Virus record (IMG/VR): IMGVR_UViG_3300035698_010610
Coordinates: 1 to 64,000 of that record
DNA: 64,000 nt
Source of the DNA: a virus
Direction: 5' to 3' (one strand)
Shown here: in pieces, positions 1,156 through 44,170 of the stretch
How the letters are laid out: every line of letters starts with the position of its first letter
How positions within the stretch are numbered: the stretch's first letter is position 1
Position numbers and translations under genes: made by a program
The notes under the pieces: model-generated
What the model saw: only the letters and a program-made list of their open reading frames with translations
What the model was told of the DNA's origin: nothing
Database searches by the model: none

Positions 1156-3447
1156 TTATTGCAACAGGCCGCCCGCAGAACGGGCCAGCCCTTTTAGTGT
1201 GGTCACGGTGGCCTTGACGCCCGCGTTGATGTCAATCAACTGCTTGTTGCGTTCCTTGTCCATCGGATTCTTCGGTTTCAACGAGGTCTGAATATGCTTG
1301 GCGAAGTCGGCCGCTGCCATGATCTGCGATTGTCGCATCGGCTCCGGCGGGGCGAGTGCTTTCTTCGCCGCTGCCCTGGTCATGCCGCCACCAGCTTGCG
1401 CAGCAGAAACACCAATGCCCGTCAATGTAGTCCCAAGGCCAGACATGAGCGAATTGCCAAGGGCGTTGACTATAGGGCTGCTTTTGTCGCTCATCCGCAG
1501 CTTGATCGTGTCGATCATCTTCTGCCCGGCGTTCATGTACGGGCTGGCGATATTGCTTGCGGATTGCATCGCCGCGTCCATGCCCGTTTTCTGCTTTGGG
1601 ATGAGCGATGTCCACCCGCCCTTGGACAGGTCCTTGAATGTCCTCTGCTGCTGTGCCGCAATCGCTTGCGCCAGATATTCCTTCGCGTTCCTGACGCCCC
1701 GCACCGACGTGCTCATATCTGCTCTCGCGCCCTTCGCCGCCGTGGCGATTGTCGCGTCGTCTGTAAACAGGCCGCCCATGCCTTCCCGTTGGCGAATAGC
1801 CGCCCGCCGCTTGGCGTCTTTCTGGCTCCAGCCGCCCTGGGTGATTGTTCCTTGCTGCCGCCGCGCCTGCCACCAATTGAGGTCGCTAACACGCCTTTCG
1901 TTTTGGTCCGCGAGCGACTCATTCATCTTCACCGATCTCTTCGCCGCATCGACGTGGGCCGGCGATCCCACCACGGTAGGGTCGTTTGCCATGTCCCGCT
2001 CCGAGGCCGACTCCTTTTTGACTTTGTCGAACCTGTTTTGCGAGTCCATGACCTCGTCAATTGCGTTCCGGTATCCTCCCAGCAATTTGATCTGTGCGTT
2101 AAGCGCGTCGCCAAATGACTCCCCCTTCGCCTTCGCCCGCATCCACGCCGTGGCGAGAACGCCCACTGCCGTAGCAAGCGCCATAATCCCCATCGTCACC
2201 GGTCCACCCGCTGCTGCCCCGACGGCGGTTAGGGCCGAGACCATAGACAACAGCTTGGCTCCAATTACAACTGCCGCCAAGGCCGACCCGAGCCGCACAA
2301 GCACTTCAACGAATTTCGCTATCCCGTCATTGCTCTCGGTCATCGCGCTGGCCAGTGACGTAATCCTCTCCGCCAGCTTTGTGAAAAACGGAAGCGTTTT
2401 TTCGCCAACGGCAATCAGCAGCCCCTCGAATGCTGACTTGAGTTTCGTTATCTGGCCGGACAGCCCTCGCATCTGAACATCGGCGATCCGCTTGGCGGTG
2501 CCGCCCGCGTCCTCAAGAGCGCGTTGATAATCGCGGACCGCGTCCCCTCCTTGGCTGAGTAATTCAAGCAGGGCAGGCCCGGCCCGTTGGCCGAACGCCT
2601 TCATCATCAGCATCATCTTGTCGCCTTCGCCTTTACCCGCCATCGCGGCATTAAGATCGTCGAAAATGTCGGCCAGCGGACGCAGCTCACCGAAAGCGGT
2701 CTTGGTTTCCACGCCAAGCGATTTGAAGACCTTAGTTGTTTCAGGCGTTGCCCCGGATAGCTTCGACATGATTCCACGCAACGCGGTCCCGGCCATCCCG
2801 CCTTGCATTCCCGCATTGCTCAAAACCTGAATTGCTGCGGCAGTTTCCTCCAGGCTATATCCGGCAGTCTTGGCAACCGGGCCGACGTATTTCATCGCTT
2901 CGCCAAGCTGCACGAGGTCTGTATTCGATGTGGTAAATGCTTTTGCCAAAACATCGACAGCGTGCCCGAGTTCGTCCGCCTCCATTCCCATTCCGGCCAT
3001 AATCTTCGCGGCGATGTCGGACGCGGTTGCAACGTCGAGTTGGCCAGCGGCGGCAAGGTCCAACGTCGCAGGCATGGCCCCGATAATCTTTTTCGCGTCA
3101 AACCCCGCCAGCGCGAAGTTGCCCATCGCGTCGGCTGACTGCCGGGCGGAAAACATAGTCGTGGCCCCGAGCTTTTTCGCCTGGGCAGACAGCGCTGCGA
3201 AGTCAGACTCCCCGGCACTGGTCAAAGCCAGCACACGATTCATCCCCTGCTCGAATGACGCGGCGGCATGAGTCGCAACCCCGAACGCACCAGCGCCGAG
3301 GAGTAGCCCGAGTTTCGCCTTCGCGGCGACCTTCTCCATCGACATCACGGCACCCTGGAACTGCTTGCGCGAACGCGACAGCCCCTTGGCGAATGCCTTG
3401 TGGTCGATGCCGATATACGCGAAGTATTCACCGATCTTGCTGGGCAT
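1156..3447 (-). CDS. tail tape measure protein (TP901 family)
   Basis: FEQGMNRVLALT...AKKLGATTMFSARQSADAM, LGEAMKYVGPVA, GMAGTALRG; Ala-rich helical; follows the chaperone genes. Confidence 0.92.
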   Translation of the reverse strand: MPSKIGEYFAYIGIDHKAFAKGLSRSRKQFQGAVMSMEKVAAKAKLGLLLGAGAFGVATHAAASFEQGMNRVLALTSAGESDFAALSAQAKKLGATTMFSARQSADAMGNFALAGFDAKKIIGAMPATLDLAAAGQLDVATASDIAAKIMAGMGMEADELGHAVDVLAKAFTTSNTDLVQLGEAMKYVGPVAKTAGYSLEETAAAIQVLSNAGMQGGMAGTALRGIMSKLSGATPETTKVFKSLGVETKTAFGELRPLADIFDDLNAAMAGKGEGDKMMLMMKAFGQRAGPALLELLSQGGDAVRDYQRALEDAGGTAKRIADVQMRGLSGQITKLKSAFEGLLIAVGEKTLPFFTKLAERITSLASAMTESNDGIAKFVEVLVRLGSALAAVVIGAKLLSMVSALTAVGAAAGGPVTMGIMALATAVGVLATAWMRAKAKGESFGDALNAQIKLLGGYRNAIDEVMDSQNRFDKVKKESASERDMANDPTVVGSPAHVDAAKRSVKMNESLADQNERRVSDLNWWQARRQQGTITQGGWSQKDAKRRAAIRQREGMGGLFTDDATIATAAKGARADMSTSVRGVRNAKEYLAQAIAAQQQRTFKDLSKGGWTSLIPKQKTGMDAAMQSASNIASPYMNAGQKMIDTIKLRMSDKSSPIVNALGNSLMSGLGTTLTGIGVSAAQAGGGMTRAAAKKALAPPEPMRQSQIMAAADFAKHIQTSLKPKNPMDKERNKQLIDINAGVKATVTTLKGLARSAGGLLQ

Positions 3448-35613: not shown

Positions 35614-35913
35614 ATGGCGGGACGGAAATGTCGCAAGACGATGGCAGAAAAACACTCGCAAGGGCTAGCCGGGCACCCGCTGTTAGTGTTAGCGCGGGCG
35701 GTGCGTCGGGCCGGTGACGCGGACCGCGAAGCTAGCCTGCATGTGGAGTCTGAACCGACCGCAATGTCGATCCTGCGTGGGAGCATCGAAGAGGCTGCTT
35801 GTGCGTTGGACGAACTGACAGCATTGCTCAATGCCGGAGTATACGATACGGTCCACAGTCACGGGCGAATGCCAGGCGATGATTACGCGGCGGCACGCCC
35901 ACATAAATACTAG
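35614..35913 (+). CDS. hypothetical protein
   Basis: AGGAGG RBS before MAGRK. Confidence 0.5.
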   Translation: MAGRKCRKTMAEKHSQGLAGHPLLVLARAVRRAGDADREASLHVESEPTAMSILRGSIEEAACALDELTALLNAGVYDTVHSHGRMPGDDYAAARPHKY

Positions 35914-35926
35914 CCGAGGAGAAGCG

Positions 35927-36553
35927 ATGACGGCCGGGAAATTGACCATCAAGACGGCGAAACTTGGATCGCTCGTGCCAGCCCCCTACAATACGAGGCT
36001 GCACAACGAAGCAAACCTCTCAGCGACCCGCGCCAGCCTTGAGCGGTTCGGGCAAGTGGAACCGCTCGTCACGAGGGAATTGGAGAACGGCACGTACGAA
36101 GTCGTCGGGGGTAACGGGCGGCTTGAGGCCATGCAGTCGCTGGAGTGGGACGTGGCGAAAATCGTGGTGGTCGAGTTGACCGACCCCGAAGCCAAAGCGT
36201 TGTCGATCGCGCTGAACCGCACCGCCGAACTGGCGACGTGGGATGAATCGGCCCTTTTTCTCCAGATCACGGAAATGATTGGGGAGGGGGTGCCGTCCGA
36301 AGACCTCGGCTGGAGCGACGGCGACGTTGAGGCCCTCGCGGCGTCCGTAGACAACCCGCCCGACACGAGCGAGAACGTGGACCCGGACCCGGACACCCCG
36401 AAGGCGAAGCAGGGGAGGCCGATCAACATGACCGTCGAGCAGCGGCAAATCTTCGATCAGGCCGTGCTCAAATTGCGTCAAGTTGAGAATGAAGAATGGA
36501 CTGAGGGCAAGTGCGTCGAGATGGTTTGCGCCGACTGGCTCTCGGGCCACTAG
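35927..36553 (+). CDS. ParB N-terminal domain protein
   Basis: LVPAPYNTRLH, FGQVEPLV, VVGGNGRL, IALNR. Confidence 0.85.
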   Translation: MTAGKLTIKTAKLGSLVPAPYNTRLHNEANLSATRASLERFGQVEPLVTRELENGTYEVVGGNGRLEAMQSLEWDVAKIVVVELTDPEAKALSIALNRTAELATWDESALFLQITEMIGEGVPSEDLGWSDGDVEALAASVDNPPDTSENVDPDPDTPKAKQGRPINMTVEQRQIFDQAVLKLRQVENEEWTEGKCVEMVCADWLSGH

Positions 36554-36831
36554 CTCGCTTTTGCGGCAGCCCACAGCCGCAACAATTTCACTGCACTGAG
36601 TCCAACCGCGCACCCCATTGCTGACAGCGTGGGGAACCGGGGGACCTTCCCCGCTTCTACATCGCTCCACAGCCCCTGACTCACCCCCGCCTTTTTGGCG
36701 GCTGCCGACTGAGTCAACCCAATGCGGTTGCGGGCGCTGCGGATCGATGCACCGATTGCCGAGATCGTCGGGCGGGTCAACGGCGCACCGCGTCGCCTCT
36801 GCTTCACTGGCCTTCGCTGCTTGGTCGTCAT
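36550..36831 (-). CDS. XRE-family HTH regulator
   Basis: IRSARNRIGLTQSAAAKKAGVSQGLWSDVEAGK. Confidence 0.85.
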   Translation of the reverse strand: MTTKQRRPVKQRRRGAPLTRPTISAIGASIRSARNRIGLTQSAAAKKAGVSQGLWSDVEAGKVPRFPTLSAMGCAVGLSAVKLLRLWAAAKAS

Positions 36832-37205
36832 CGGTGCTGTCCTTGTGGTGCCGGGTAGCTCAGACCAATTGTATCCGGGCAGCCGCTGCTCAGGCTACCC
36901 CCATTCAACAGAAGCCCCGGACCTCCTGGCTTTCCGGGCCGTAGTGAAATTCCGTAATCCATTATACCCTCCACACCTCCCGCTCCAACTGCCAATTTTC
37001 AGTGTGGGGTTTTCGGCCCCGATTTTCTGCATCATTCCATGCGGCTAGGAGTGCTGGCTTTCGCGTGGAACCCCGCAGGGAGCCCTGGAGGCGGGCCAAC
37101 AAGCACCGGCGGTCTTGTCAGTTTTCTTTTCTATGCCCCGTGCTTTTCCCCCTTCAGGGGTACGATTTCCCGGCTTTCTCGGATATTTTCCGGGAAATTC
37201 AACTT

Positions 37206-37250
37206 TTGACGGGTTTACATATTCCATTTTATCTCAAAACGAGATAATCT
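37206..37250 (+). promoter_or_regulatory. AT-rich early promoter region with palindromic operator
   Basis: TTGACG and TTTACA, GATAAT/TAATCT; TTATCTC-N5-GAGATAA at 37229-37247. Confidence 0.6.
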
Positions 37251-37276
37251 AGTCATAGTCAATGTGACTGACAACC

Positions 37277-37290
37277 TGCTCTTTGACAAC
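37277..37290 (+). promoter_or_regulatory. boxA-like antitermination element
   Basis: TGCTCTTTGACAAC versus rrn boxA TGCTCTTTAACA. Confidence 0.6.
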
Positions 37291-37340
37291 TCGAACGGCA
37301 CCGGCCAAGACAGCCTTCTGCAATCTGGCCCCTGACCAAA

Positions 37341-37623
37341 CATCTCGGCTTGCCCTGACGGGCGTGAGAATAGTAGTCGGGCGGAAGATTAGCAACAACC
37401 CAGGCCCAGTCGGTCCCCCACTTCAAGGATGAATTGGGAAAGCAACCTCTTCGCAAAATCTCGCGAGCCCTCAAGAACGATCCCAGCAGTGGGAGTAACC
37501 GTCGGGCAAGCTCGCGGATGAGATACGCGAGACCTACTACCGCTCAACGGGAATTGAGCGGGATGGGGTATTCACCAACGAGCGGCCACAGCGCACAAAT
37601 GACTCGTCGGTGATTGCCCCATC
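37341..37623 (+). ncRNA. candidate structured leader RNA
   Basis: 37348-61 pairs with 37499-511; hairpins at 37540-61 and 37562-623; no credible ORF. Confidence 0.5.
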
Positions 37624-37673
37624 AGGGTCGCACGGGACTGGCACCCGTGCCTGATGAGCTGCCTCGAAACCCT
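37624..37673 (+). ncRNA. type III hammerhead ribozyme
   Basis: AGGGU-C^-GCACGGG(ACUGGCA)CCCGUGC-CUGAUGA-G(CUGCCU)C-GAA-ACCCU; complete core; loop GGCA/UGCC complementarity. Confidence 0.8.
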
Positions 37674-37689
37674 AACCCGGAGAGTAACA

Positions 37690-37941
37690 ATGACACGCCG
37701 AACCTTCATGGCCCGCCTGGAATCTGCCACCAACCTGATCCCGGACAGGATCACGCGGAAAAAGGATGGGACGGTCGAATGCAAGAAGTCGTACTTCTAC
37801 CGCAACCGTGGACAAGACGCTCGGGACGGTGAGCGGCTGGCGGCTGCATTCCCCGAAGCCACCATCACCACCCGGGACGACTATCGGAACCACCCAGCAA
37901 TATCGTACTTCGTTCACGTTCTCACCTTCCCCGTTGCCTGA
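37690..37941 (+). CDS. hypothetical early protein
   Basis: ACCCGGAGAG RBS. Confidence 0.6.
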   Translation: MTRRTFMARLESATNLIPDRITRKKDGTVECKKSYFYRNRGQDARDGERLAAAFPEATITTRDDYRNHPAISYFVHVLTFPVA

Positions 37942-37978
37942 CAATCACCTGCCCTGCCCCCTAGCCTGGAGAGAAACG

Positions 37979-38419
37979 ATGAAGACCAAACGAGCCGCCA
38001 TCAGCCGCAAAGAGTTGTTCGCTGTCGCCGCCACCGAGAGCCGTCGGGCTGCCACGACGACCAAGACCGCGAAGAACATTTTCCCCAAGATCAAGACCAA
38101 GGGGGGCGGCTATACCGTCGGCATCCGATTCATGGACGAAGCCCGCGGCGAGCGGTACTTCGACACAGAATGGAGCGTCACCGCTTGGCACGAAGCTGGT
38201 TCGTTCTCTATTCCCTGTCCTGTCTCCTATAACGGACGGATGATCTGGCAGGACCCCGCTGGCAACAGTATCGGCCGCGATATCCGCGTGGGCGACACAC
38301 TGAGCTTGACAATCACCCGCTGGTCAATGCGGGGCCGCAGCGAAACGCTTGGTCGCAGCATCACGGTCAAAGCCGTGGCGGTGGGCGACGCTGGCGACTA
38401 TGTCACCATCACGTACTAG
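37979..38419 (+). CDS. hypothetical early protein
   Basis: GGAGAG RBS before MKTKR. Confidence 0.6.
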   Translation: MKTKRAAISRKELFAVAATESRRAATTTKTAKNIFPKIKTKGGGYTVGIRFMDEARGERYFDTEWSVTAWHEAGSFSIPCPVSYNGRMIWQDPAGNSIGRDIRVGDTLSLTITRWSMRGRSETLGRSITVKAVAVGDAGDYVTITY

Positions 38420-38456
38420 CTTTTACACCACGCAACCGTCTACATTGGAGAGAGCC

Positions 38457-38777
38457 GTGTCATACCCTACCGGATGCACCATTGCTGATTTCTGCCCGGT
38501 CGACAGTTGCGAAGTCCGCCTGCACCGTCACGTCCGACCTGACGGTTGGGCATACGGCTCCAGCCTGACCCCGAGCAATTGGGACCGTGCAGCTTTCTAC
38601 CTGCCAACGCACAGCATTGGACCTGTCAAAGAGCTTGCTGTCAACATCATCGTAACCGGCCGCACCATCCAGCGCGACAACGGTTGCAACGTGGTCCGAG
38701 TGATGATCGAGTTCGTCGGTGACGGCGAGCCGTCCACAATCGTGCGCGGTTGGATGGACGTTGCTGACACCGTTTGA
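38457..38777 (+). CDS. hypothetical early protein
   Basis: GGAGAG RBS, GTG start. Confidence 0.55.
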   Translation: MSYPTGCTIADFCPVDSCEVRLHRHVRPDGWAYGSSLTPSNWDRAAFYLPTHSIGPVKELAVNIIVTGRTIQRDNGCNVVRVMIEFVGDGEPSTIVRGWMDVADTV

Positions 38778-39013
38778 CTCCCTCCCTGGCCTGCCTGCGT
38801 AACCGGGCATCGCAACCCGGCAGGCCACTTCTGCTTTACCCCCTCACCTTTCAGGGAGGAAACGATGGGCGCAATCGTCAACAGGACCGCAGAGGCCGTG
38901 CTGAAGGCCGAGTACGATGAAGGATTGCGGGTCGCGAGGGTGATTACCCGCTGCGGTATGTTTTAACCGCAGACCTATTGCCTCCAACCTTTACCCCACG
39001 CGGGAGAACAGTC

Positions 39014-39250
39014 ATGGCACCGTACCGACAAGCAACCGTTCTGACACCGAAAACTTTTGCTCGCTTTTTGTCAACAGCCGCCCACGAGTCGCTCACGGAC
39101 GAACACGCATCCAAGTTCCTCCAAAACGTCCACGAAATCTTGACCGACTACTCGATGTCGGTGCAGCTTCACGGGGACGTGCCCCCGAAAGCTCGACGCT
39201 TCGAGGACTTCGCGGACGCAGCTACTGAACACCTGGAAGATTTGATCTAG
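39014..39250 (+). CDS. hypothetical protein
   Basis: GGGAGA RBS. Confidence 0.55.
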   Translation: MAPYRQATVLTPKTFARFLSTAAHESLTDEHASKFLQNVHEILTDYSMSVQLHGDVPPKARRFEDFADAATEHLEDLI

Positions 39251-39324
39251 CGACCGTTCGTTTTTCTGCCCGTTCATGCAAGCTGGTGCATCGCCAGCCT
39301 GCCACCACAACAAGGGAGAGTACA

Positions 39325-40032
39325 ATGGCAAACGCAACCACCACCGACCTGCATTCTGGTGACCTCGTTGACCTCCGCCCCTCCGCCTTGGCTGCCCTGG
39401 CCCTCGACCCCAAAGCCGAGAACAACCTCAAAGCCTACGTCTCGCGGGTAGTGAAAAACGGCCGCGTAGCTGTCCGCACCGCCAACGGGGACAACATCAA
39501 ACTTGACCGCAAAGACATGCGGCCCCACGAGACGAGCATGCAGCGGGAAACCCGCCGCGTAAATGACCTGGAAGCTGCTGCCAGTGCGTGCCGCGAAGAA
39601 TTGTCGGCCTGGACGGCTACCATCGAGAAAGCCGTAGCGGATCGCCGCGAGCGGTTGGAGCAAGTCGCCGAAGGGGTGGAGTCCATCACGGAGTGGGTGA
39701 GGTGGCACGCTGAGGACGCAGTCCGAGATGAGGCTATATTGGCTCACGCCGACCGCTTCGGGCTGCTCACCGTCGTTGAGAGGGCCTTGAGGGGCGACCT
39801 GGCGTTGGTTGACGCAGGACGCAAATTCGAGGAGATCGAAACCCTGATGACCAAGCAGTTGATCGAGTCGCCGTACCGTCATTCATCGTCGTCCCACGCC
39901 TCCACTTTGACCGAAGCAATCGGCGTTGAGGCCCTGGCCAAACTCCTCCAATCGTACGGGGTCCGAGCCACCCCGCGCAGCATCATGCAATGGCACTTCT
40001 CTACTGCTGACACGATCGCAAAAGCGTGGTAG
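39325..40032 (+). CDS. hypothetical protein (SH3-like N-terminus plus helical region)
   Basis: GGGAGAG RBS; 235 aa. Confidence 0.65.
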   Translation: MANATTTDLHSGDLVDLRPSALAALALDPKAENNLKAYVSRVVKNGRVAVRTANGDNIKLDRKDMRPHETSMQRETRRVNDLEAAASACREELSAWTATIEKAVADRRERLEQVAEGVESITEWVRWHAEDAVRDEAILAHADRFGLLTVVERALRGDLALVDAGRKFEEIETLMTKQLIESPYRHSSSSHASTLTEAIGVEALAKLLQSYGVRATPRSIMQWHFSTADTIAKAW

Positions 40033-41225: not shown

Positions 41226-41630
41226 ATGAACGCAACCGACCCGATGACACCAGCAACCCATAACGGCATTTTCACCGTCACGTCTGCCGCCTCCGGCAGC
41301 CATCGGACATTCCGCATCAAAACGCAGAGGGACGACTCCACCTTCGCACCCGGAGAGCGGGTCGTCGCCCTACTGACCGGGGCGGACAACAGCCACGACT
41401 GTAAGGGGTTCGGGTTCATCAAACCCGACGGCCGCATCATCGTCTGGAAGAAACATCGCGGGACGGACATGGAACGGTTCGCCCGAATGCTCGAACGACT
41501 CGACGCCCACGAGGCCGCCGGGCACGTCCAGGTACAGGTTGAGGGGCGTTGCCGCCGATGTAACCGCCGCCTGACTACCCCCGAATCCGTTGCCGCCGGA
41601 ATCGGCCCGGTCTGCGACGGCCGCGACTGA
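41226..41630 (+). CDS. DUF6011-like zinc-binding phage protein
   Basis: GRCRRCNRRLTTPESVAAGIGPVC. Confidence 0.75.
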   Translation: MNATDPMTPATHNGIFTVTSAASGSHRTFRIKTQRDDSTFAPGERVVALLTGADNSHDCKGFGFIKPDGRIIVWKKHRGTDMERFARMLERLDAHEAAGHVQVQVEGRCRRCNRRLTTPESVAAGIGPVCDGRD

Positions 41631-42598: not shown

Positions 42599-44170
42599 AT
42601 GAAACTGATCGACAAAGTAAAACACGCCCGCCGCGTTTCCGTGCCGCTGGTCGGGATTACAACCGCCGATCCGATGGCGACGATGCGGTCCCTGGCTAAT
42701 GGCCTGCAAAACGGCCCTATCGTCGCGTGGGACTGTGTCCGTGGGTTGTGGGGCGTCAATACCGGCGGGGACGAATTGGCTGACGTCCTCAACGAAGGGG
42801 CTGCCCCCGAAGATCGCGGCGGCTCCCCGATGGAGGTGCTGGAGTTGGGACTGCGGACGAACTCGGACGGAACACCCCGCATTCCGGCCGAGTCCATCAT
42901 CGTGATTCTGCAAGCCGGTGCCTACATCGAACGGCCGGAGGTTCAGCAAGGCGTCTGGAATCTGCGAGACCTGTTCAAACAGGACCGCCGAATGCTCATC
43001 TTGATGGACGCTGGTTTGCAACTGCCCGCGTTCATCAAGGACGACATTGTCCTGATGGAAGACCCGTTGCCAGGCCCGGATGAACTGAAAGCGATCATCA
43101 CGGACATTGACGCCGCTGCCAACAAATGCCCTGTTTGCGTCGGGACCAAAAAGGTCGGCGGCCTCACCTGCGAGGAGTGCAAAGGCAGGGGCGTCACGAA
43201 ACGGAAACCGTTGACCGGTCCGCAGATCAGCCACGCCATTGAGGCCGTGCGTGGGCTGCCCGCATTCTCAGCAGAACAAGCGACCGCTATGGCGCTGCGG
43301 AAGAACGGCGTCGACATCGACCACCTGTGGGAGATAAAACGCAAACAGGTCGAGCAAACGCGAGGCTTGAGCGTCTACCGGGGCGGTGAGAAATTCGCGG
43401 CCCTCGGCGGGCTGGGTGCGATCAAAGCGCACCTGTCAGCCATTATGACGGGCCGCAAACCGCCGACATGCATCGTCTGGCTCGACGAAGTTGAGAAGAC
43501 CGGCATCGCCCACACCGGAGACACGAGTGGGGTAAACGCCGATCAGAACGGTGTCCTGTTGACTGAGATGGAAGATCACGACATCTACGGCGTCATGCTC
43601 CTCGGCGTGCCCGGGGCTGGGAAATCGGCGATCTGCAAAGCGGCCGGGGCTGAATTCGGTTGCCCGGTCATTCGCCTTGACCTGGGCGGGATGCAGGGAC
43701 CGCACGTCGGCGAGTCGCAGCAATTCATCAGGCACGCCCTCAAGGTTGTCTGGGCCATCGGCGGCGACTCAACGCTATGGCTGGCCACGAGCAACTCCAT
43801 CGACGGGCTCGACGCCGCGATGCGTAGCCGGTTTTGCGATACGTTCTTTTTCGACCTGCCGAGCAAAGCGGAGCGGTCTGCGATCTGGAAAGTCTGGTTG
43901 GATCTTTACCCGGACGTTGATGGATCAGAGAAGCCGAGCGATGATGGATGGGTCGGCCGAAACATCCGGCGATGCGTCGAGAAGGCGTGGCGGATGAACG
44001 TGTCGCTAACGGACGCGGCGAAGGCTGTCCTGCCGGTCGGACGTTTGGAAGCGGAAACCATTGACCGGCTCCGCTCCGGTGCCCATAAGCGATACCTCGA
44101 CGCGACCCGCGAAGGCGTCTACGAGAAACCCCGCACTGCGACTCGGTCGCGAGCGGTTGACATAGCGTAG
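42599..44170 (+). CDS. AAA+ ATPase (Ycf46-like)
   Basis: Walker A GVPGAGKS, LATSNSI, RF...FFFDLP; inserted CPVC...CEECKG zinc finger. Confidence 0.85.
   Translation: MKLIDKVKHARRVSVPLVGITTADPMATMRSLANGLQNGPIVAWDCVRGLWGVNTGGDELADVLNEGAAPEDRGGSPMEVLELGLRTNSDGTPRIPAESIIVILQAGAYIERPEVQQGVWNLRDLFKQDRRMLILMDAGLQLPAFIKDDIVLMEDPLPGPDELKAIITDIDAAANKCPVCVGTKKVGGLTCEECKGRGVTKRKPLTGPQISHAIEAVRGLPAFSAEQATAMALRKNGVDIDHLWEIKRKQVEQTRGLSVYRGGEKFAALGGLGAIKAHLSAIMTGRKPPTCIVWLDEVEKTGIAHTGDTSGVNADQNGVLLTEMEDHDIYGVMLLGVPGAGKSAICKAAGAEFGCPVIRLDLGGMQGPHVGESQQFIRHALKVVWAIGGDSTLWLATSNSIDGLDAAMRSRFCDTFFFDLPSKAERSAIWKVWLDLYPDVDGSEKPSDDGWVGRNIRRCVEKAWRMNVSLTDAAKAVLPVGRLEAETIDRLRSGAHKRYLDATREGVYEKPRTATRSRAVDIA

Follow-up and report, generated by a model that had tools for sequence, protein, structure and literature searches.

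A predicted type III hammerhead ribozyme with a one-pair stem II, of a pseudoknotted phage subclass, between a folded leader and a small gene

A short stretch of a tailed phage genome, lying between a long untranslated region and the first of a run of small genes, carries the core of a hammerhead ribozyme on a stem II of one base pair, which raises the questions of whether it is a genuine hammerhead, to which type it belongs, and what a cut at this place would do for the phage. The window analyzed here covers the first 64 kb of a virus record of 90,314 bases that has direct terminal repeats. Genes for the tape-measure, major head, portal and terminase proteins are on the minus strand, and those for a helicase and others are on the plus strand. 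No close relatives of the phage turned up: blastn of 36000–40000 against GenBank phages and related-locus searches with the 83-aa gene, the ParB gene and the terminase found none, and the best terminase match by tblastn had 28% identity. About 860 nt without codon periodicity separate a divergent regulator gene from the gene at 37690. The genes on either side are as follows.

35831–36553, plus strand: ParB-like gene (annotation)
36550–36831, minus strand: divergent helix-turn-helix regulator gene (Pfam HTH_31 at 2.9e-9, and HTH_3; PHROG transcriptional regulator/repressor families)
37690–37941, plus strand: first gene of a rightward run of small ORFs, 83 aa (ORF; third-position GC of 0.72–0.76 in frame)

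The 83-aa gene matched no PHROG or Pfam family and found no relatives in the related-locus search or by tblastn. Among the twelve small ORFs between 37690 and 42595 the sole family match was that of the small ORF at 41226–41630 (plus strand), in the early region, to DUF6011 (E 5e-14).

The site itself can be divided into the following elements, all on the plus strand and, where no other basis is given, read directly from the letters.

37624–37673, plus strand: predicted type III hammerhead ribozyme (sequence; sole descriptor match in the genome; 63.3 bits with the covariance model R1 described below)
37624–37628 (AGGGU) and 37669–37673 (ACCCU), plus strand: stem III, 5 bp
37629, plus strand: C17
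37629/37630, plus strand: predicted cleavage site (sequence-based)
37630–37636 (GCACGGG) and 37644–37650 (CCCGUGC), plus strand: stem I, 7 bp
37637–37643, plus strand: loop I, ACUGGCA, 7 nt
37651–37657, plus strand: core CUGAUGA
G37658–C37665, plus strand: stem II, the single pair G10.1–C11.1
37659–37664, plus strand: loop II, CUGCCU
37666–37668, plus strand: core GAA
G37640–C37663, G37641–C37662, C37642–G37661 and A37643–U37660, plus strand: loop-loop kissing pseudoknot (complementarity and subclass register)
37679–37684, plus strand: ribosome binding site (RBS) GGAGAG of the first plus-strand gene, 5 nt past stem III

Every position expected of a hammerhead core is present: C3, U4, G5, A6, N7, G8 and A9, then G12, A13 and A14, the A15.1–U16.1 pair (A37669–U37628), and H17, which is C37629 and not G. 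Three helices surround it, with 7 bp in stem I, 5 bp in stem III and G10.1–C11.1 closing stem II, which is strictly one pair at this site because C37659 and U37664 cannot pair. The GGCA of loop I (37640–37643) is complementary over 4 bp to the UGCC of loop II (37660–37663). An initial annotation, made from the letters alone, had described the same core, stems and single G-C stem II, and placed the end of the motif just before the RBS of gene 37690; both descriptions hold in the sequence as given. It had also placed the motif just upstream of the first early gene, and here the position stands, at 20 nt before the first small plus-strand gene, while the word "early" is an inference from gene order only. 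The ATG at 37690 lies 60 nt 3′ of the predicted cleavage site.

We collected further examples by searching with patterns that hold little of the structure. An earlier, over-specific pattern requiring GGCA and UGCC found 0 viral loci. A 16-base pattern at the window's spacing, consisting only of GUC, CUGAUGAG and CGAAA, found 29 loci in viral sequences. In 22 of them stem I is a perfect 7 bp, without the pattern having asked for it; the other 7 have 0–1 pairs. The 22 loci share a 7-nt loop I, a stem III of 3–9 bp, and complementarity between loops I and II. Run as a control on bacterial and archaeal genomes, this pattern gave at least 120 loci, with 0–3 stem I pairs in 119 of the matches listed, and there was no subclass member among the loci listed. 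A stricter, 22-base pattern run on metagenomes found 76 loci, and in 73 the 7-bp stem I is present. Pooled, the subclass comprises 97 loci and 62 distinct 52-mers. Its build is a GUC, a 7-bp stem I with a 7-nt loop, CUGAUGA-G, a 6-nt loop II and C-GAAAC, with positions 4–7 of loop I pairing with positions 5–2 of loop II.

Covariation in this subclass extends to stem I, stem III and the pairing between the loops. In a first set made up of the window and the 22 viral loci (21 distinct rows), 92.7% of pairing cells were paired, against 70.4% after shuffling and 30–48% in slid controls, and none of 500 shuffles attained the observed values. Two-sided changes occurred in 13 of the 19 pairs, comprising 7 of 7 in stem I, 4 of 6 in stem III and 2 of 5 in the pseudoknot; the stem I share is partly circular because the 22 loci were chosen by stem I, and stem III and the pseudoknot played no part in that choice. 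Across the 62 distinct sequences, the position of C37642–G37661 is U-A in 52 and C-G in 10, and that of G37640–C37663 is paired in 59 with five types of pair (G-C, A-U, C-G, U-A and G-U), and the observed level of pseudoknot pairing was attained in 0 of 2000 shuffles. The G37641–C37662 pair is fixed by the search pattern and hence uninformative on covariation. The contact that stem I's loop makes with that of stem II thus consists of a 4-bp pairing with two positions that covary across the 62 sequences, so that the complementarity from which the initial annotation had suggested a pseudoknot is now backed by a shared register and by covariation. In 41 of the 62 distinct members, about two thirds, stem II could gain another pair from the two end bases of loop II, and the window is the only one of the 62 with C and U at 10.2/11.2.

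Searches with covariance models gave a divided answer to the check with hammerhead models that the initial annotation had proposed: the Rfam models stayed below threshold, and a model built without the window found the site decisively. At Rfam gathering scores there were 0 matches at the site or elsewhere in the entire window. In E-value mode, the interval 37400–37800 matched solely Hammerhead_II (RF02276), at 16.2 bits (E 1.3; gathering score 37) with an alignment spanning 37608–37667; in the same interval neither Hammerhead_3 (RF00008; gathering score 48.5 bits) nor RAGATH-1 (RF03152) matched at E up to 10. RF00008 also scored the subclass loci low, at 23.3–37.5 bits for 7 of the 20 searched, beneath the same gathering score of 48.5. 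The subclass thus lies below Rfam thresholds and is therefore missed by standard annotation. For model R1 we used 20 of the 22 viral loci, excluding the window and dropping two loci as duplicates (L013 of L009, and L028 of L027). The model scored the window site at 63.3 bits (E 1.3e-18) in a full-length, gap-free alignment with all four loop pairs present, which places the site within the subclass as defined. One locus that fits the 22-base pattern without a stem I (L172) was absent from R1 matches at E up to 1e-5.

Searches of the 90-kb phage genome with the descriptor, R1 and RF02276 indicate that it carries this one hammerhead only. The type III descriptor matched at this site alone on both strands of the 90,314 bases, and RF02276 had no match anywhere in the genome at E up to 1. 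Two weak R1 matches on the minus strand were treated as noise: one at 43710–43772 (13.1 bits, E about 0.1), which has CUGAUGA and a stem I-like hairpin and lacks GAAA, and one at 86480–86522 (11.6 bits). The former sits inside a plus-strand gene.

These results bear on three other accounts of the motif. One is that it resembles the hammerhead consensus by chance within a GC-rich intergenic region, a concern that arises since very many stretches were examined and a descriptor that accepts a stem II of 1 bp is permissive, giving 8 loose matches in 300 dinucleotide-shuffled genomes. None of those 300 genomes, however, held a match of comparable quality (stem I of at least 6 pairs, stem III of at least 4 pairs, loop of at most 12 nt), and the independent model R1, which leaves aside a pattern match such as L172 that has no stem I, finds the site at an E-value far from that of a coincidence; the site also shows the start-codon spacing typical of the subclass (see below). 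We give this account almost no credence, and judged on its sequence the resemblance to a hammerhead is not by chance. Nor is it at all credible that the motif is a type II hammerhead as drawn in the sub-threshold Rfam alignment, with the hairpin 37610–37628 as its stem III. That alignment does accommodate C17, stem I, the UGG of loop I, the core, G10.1 and the GCC tail without a gap (37629–37667), and the loop-loop pairing is therefore in the register of the type II pseudoknot. Yet this alignment sets UGAU where the core GAAA belongs and deletes two positions of stem III, because the GAAA lies downstream at this site: a proper C-GAAA at 37665–37669 closes a 5-bp stem III with 37624–37628, so that loop II is closed and stem III open. 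A relic or purely structural element of the 5′ UTR that keeps the hammerhead shape and has lost cleavage seems quite improbable to us. In its favor are the single pair of stem II, a pseudoknot of 4 pairs against 6 in the type II example that has been tested, and the C and U at 10.2/11.2 that no other distinct member shares. Against it, all core positions match the consensus, whereas decay would be expected to have cost the copy some of them; the stems and pseudoknot are intact in the subclass register; and the C-G pseudoknot pair of the window is common to 10 of the 62 members. The intact core, the covarying phage subclass and a loop register like that of validated type II pseudoknot forms together support the hammerhead reading, and the site is very probably a real hammerhead, a new and well-supported member of a ribozyme kind already known.

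Folding predictions depend on how much of the surrounding RNA is included. An isolated 71-nt local sequence prefers to pair 37620–37625 with the CUGAUG of the core (−22 kcal/mol, z −0.32); this alternative fold was put at −19.5 kcal/mol versus −14.2 for the bare hammerhead, a comparison that leaves the pseudoknot and the upstream hairpin at 37620–37623 uncounted. In a 146-nt context (37555–37700) the minimum free energy structure forms stems I and III, and the upstream hairpin occupies 37620–37623. The sequence CAUCAG (37620–37625), just 5′ of stem III, is exactly complementary to CUGAUG (37651–37656) and could therefore trap the ribozyme as an inactive extended hairpin. No other subclass member has this complementarity, which may be due to chance or may form a local folding switch.

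Across the subclass the predicted ribozyme keeps a close relation to the gene that follows. Among 66 distinct members with at least 150 nt of downstream sequence, 57 have a Shine–Dalgarno (SD)-like motif, a start codon and an ORF of at least 40 codons within 60 nt after the GAAA, as compared with 64 of 330 control positions drawn at random from the same loci; the other 9 have no gene start within 60 nt. In 48 of the 57 the distance from GAAA to start codon is 11–24 nt, and the window, at 20 nt, has the commonest spacing in the subclass. In several members an AGGAG overlaps stem III on its 3′ strand (CAGG); there the RBS would be set free once the RNA had been cleaved and its 5′ fragment let go. 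The tight spacing, together with the overlap of SD motif and stem III in some members, points to control of the 5′ UTR and not to mere chopping of transcripts.

On the other side of the site lies a long non-coding region with the following features.

37277–37291, plus strand: boxA-like element, a 15-mer at the head of the leader (consensus match; recurrence in related leaders)
37292–37623, plus strand: folded non-coding leader (no codon periodicity; fold z-score; collinear conserved blocks)
about 37412–37447, 37479–37501 and 37502–37520, plus strand: conserved blocks of the leader (sequence comparison)
about 37562–37623, plus strand: terminal hairpin of the leader, adjoining stem III

From the boxA-like element to the ribozyme (37277–37623) the leader measures roughly 350 nt. 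The initial annotation had supposed that a structured RNA lies upstream of the cut, and this is borne out: the site terminates a region without codon periodicity that folds strongly, with a z-score of −3.8 for 37300–37629 and 1 of 100 shuffles folding as well. Collinear blocks of the leader recur upstream of the hammerhead in other loci, on a number of phage contigs that are unrelated (L035, L183/L220, L218, L192, L190 and the L166 group), and the leader is common to one cluster, in 10 of 70 distinct upstream regions. Two of its hairpins carry compensatory substitutions between lineages, as judged by eye and without statistics. Six leader cores aligned with MAFFT and folded with RNAalifold yielded no usable consensus (−0.16), owing to the poor quality of the alignment. 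Rfam models found only chance-level matches in 36800–37640 (E 0.6–4.3), and in five related loci nothing relevant beyond sub-threshold hammerheads. A leader-block pattern matched 12 loci in viral sequences, among which we recognized by eye three leader relatives: L352 (on the L035 contig), L359 and, probably, L360. Three more (L353, L354 and L363) were rejected since the pattern match falls inside a protein-coding gene, and the remaining six showed no sign of the leader. Neither L359 nor L360 has a CUGANGA within 500 nt downstream, and the ribozyme therefore appears to be an optional end-piece of the leader family. About 150–330 nt past the GGGAAAGCAACC block, L359 has three tandem copies of a motif of ~25 nt (GAACACGGAGCAGGCCTCCAGTA-like) and no hammerhead.

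The head of the leader resembles boxA, for which GYTCTTTAANA is the consensus given, as the Nus-factor loading signal of rRNA operons, in the part of the source drawn on here (PMC5725501). Positions 37278–37288 agree with it at 10 of 11 positions, with G for A at position 8. With a purine allowed at that position, the motif occurs in the sense orientation in 7 of the 70 distinct upstream regions and in antisense in 0 of 70; 4 of the 7 regions are near-identical, so these represent about four independent lineages. The identical 15-mer stands 77–197 nt before rRNA gene starts in 3 of at least 120 genome matches listed; the two patterns applied placed none of the other 117 listed next to an rRNA gene start, and these are for the most part at chance level, which is what a 15-mer leads one to expect. 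In the phage genome 2 copies of the motif were found versus 0.24 expected, and the second, at 38624, is antisense and inside a gene, so chance matches do occur. Recruitment of Nus factors by the leader is the most likely meaning of this element, which we regard as a lead and not a result.

The promoter of the leader is less apparent. No sigma-70-like promoter was found on the plus strand in 36500–38000, and the plus-strand candidates picked by eye around 37206–37248 are weak; in L359 a TTGACA-17-TATAAT promoter stands about 50 nt before boxA. The sole sigma-70-like match in the intergenic region, 37246–37274 on the minus strand, points leftward toward the helix-turn-helix gene and overlaps one arm of a 21-nt imperfect inverted repeat (37115–37135 / 37254–37274). 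The repeat lies within the AT-rich 37090–37330, a possible operator and divergent promoter zone.

We propose, and consider highly likely, that the site is a self-cleaving type III hammerhead of the phage subclass that would cut the leader off the early mRNA and so give it a defined, short 5′ UTR. Rightward transcription would start upstream of the boxA-like element at 37277 and pass through the folded, untranslated leader. Once 37673 had been made the hammerhead could fold, with the pairing of loop II to loop I holding stems I and II side by side, and would then cut between C37629 and G37630, as the chemistry of the family predicts. The leader would be left with a 2′,3′-cyclic phosphate and the early mRNA with a 5′-OH; the message would begin with the compact 44-nt ribozyme body, its RBS no longer tied to the leader, and in this phage the cut would also detach it from the leader with the boxA-like element. 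Since the conserved feature of the subclass is the distance to the next start codon, the purpose is likely to lie in the 5′ UTR of the downstream gene, and a defined, short and structure-capped 5′ UTR that serves translation access, mRNA stability or both is, from position only, the most likely one. We likewise read the single hammerhead of this phage as a cut that defines a 5′ UTR.

The same cut has two ends, and its main task might instead be to mature the 3′ end of the leader, releasing a boxA-bearing RNA of ~350 nt, either as a free non-coding RNA or bound to Nus-modified polymerase, with the 5′ end of the mRNA as a by-product. The leader fits such a role in being non-coding and unusually stable, in sharing collinear blocks and compensatory hairpin changes with other phages, and in opening with a boxA-like signal, and the phage's single hammerhead stands exactly at its 3′ end. 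However, the neighbor that is conserved across the subclass is the downstream start codon and not the upstream RNA: many members come after ordinary genes or other hammerheads, this leader is shared by only 10 of the 70 distinct upstream regions, and its probable relatives L359 and L360 lack a CUGANGA within 500 nt downstream. We regard leader maturation as a real possibility, if an unlikely one. A further idea, which we hold only tentatively and think rather doubtful, would make the hammerhead a release step belonging to a conserved module of phage early leaders, in which the boxA leader loads the host's rRNA-type Nus antitermination complex onto RNA polymerase and the cut frees the early mRNA from the polymerase-bound leader; the leader may then stay with the polymerase while the freed mRNA, with its defined 5′ end, is translated. 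If true, this would be a natural design for cutting a tether, would connect self-cleaving ribozymes with processive antitermination and would supply a concrete function for hammerheads in phages. The preferred reading, a cut that defines the 5′ UTR, is the one that the spacing across the subclass argues for.

Pseudoknotted hammerheads of phages, including those with a 1-bp stem II, have been known since 2011, so the single pair of stem II is not new. In the parts of that work drawn on here, each of the three hammerhead types is described with pseudoknots, fast cleavage by type II forms whose stem II has 1 bp requires the pseudoknot, and type II pseudoknot hammerheads occur both in phages and in prophages, frequently just ahead of genes and clustered (Perreault et al. 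2011, PMC3088659). The window site resembles these in its core, stem I, loop I and pseudoknot register relative to CUGAUGA-G (PMC3088659; RF02276) and in a stem II cut down to 1–2 pairs (RF02276). Unlike in type II, the strand turns back one base past the pseudoknot, closes G10.1–C11.1 and continues into GAAA and stem III, and the molecule is therefore open at stem III, which makes it type III; its pseudoknot is a loop-loop kiss of 4 pairs, whereas that of type II, as far as these sources go, is a loop-tail helix of 6 pairs. For the RAGATH-1, or PK, hammerhead (RF03152), the covered part of a 2024 crystal structure report from the Lilley laboratory shows a pseudoknot helix that essentially takes over from helix II and stacks on the single G10.1–C11.1 pair (PMC11300833). 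In that form the partner of loop II is the loop of a further hairpin, helix IV, which lies 5′ of helix I; in the window loop II pairs with the loop of helix I, and the site is not of that class.

With classical type III hammerheads (RF00008), found in viroids, satellites and some bacteria and phages, the site shares the core, the open stem III and the closed stems I and II, and it differs in that the subclass has a stem II of 1–2 pairs and Watson–Crick loop pairing in place of non-canonical loop contacts. The arrangement also recalls engineered ribozyme insulators, built on a satellite-RNA hammerhead, in which a hammerhead immediately 5′ of the RBS removes variable upstream RNA and leaves a hairpin-capped 5′ UTR. 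That of the window differs from the engineered ones in being natural, with its position conserved across the subclass. Like rRNA boxA leaders and lambdoid nut sites, as presented in the covered parts of PMC5725501 and PMC3177189, the region carries, close to where a long untranslated leader starts, a sequence that resembles boxA; unlike them, it heads protein-coding early genes of a phage and ends in a predicted ribozyme. Neither a boxB nor an N-like protein was identified for the window leader.

Phages commonly carry self-cleaving ribozymes, and the 2023 paper PMC10085705, in the part covered, states that the reason for the association of ribozymes with phages is unknown. We found no description of the type III kissing-loop build or of the start-codon spacing in the literature that we covered, which does not extend to the type III alignment in the 2011 supplement, and the sequence words of the subclass are absent from the searched part of that supplement, which likewise does not hold the alignment. 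The picture that emerges is of about 100 phage loci forming a compact subclass of type III hammerheads with kissing loops. A predicted ribozyme that closes a conserved leader with a boxA-like start, here and in some of the members that cluster by their upstream regions, offers a simple system for probing the purpose of phage hammerheads.

Some phages of the subclass carry more than one copy. Contig G002, which holds the locus L014, has three successive hammerheads with a small gene directly after each, an arrangement that corresponds to the clusters described in the covered part of the 2011 paper (PMC3088659), and extra copies occur in a second lineage too. In L031 (G002:C1:3000-8000) the three lie at oriented positions 2391–2442, 2682–2735 and 3025–3061. 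The third is a type II hammerhead (RF02276, 29.7 bits) that has its stem I, core and pseudoknot in common with the type III copies, which points to interconversion of the two topologies, through permutation, inside a single phage.
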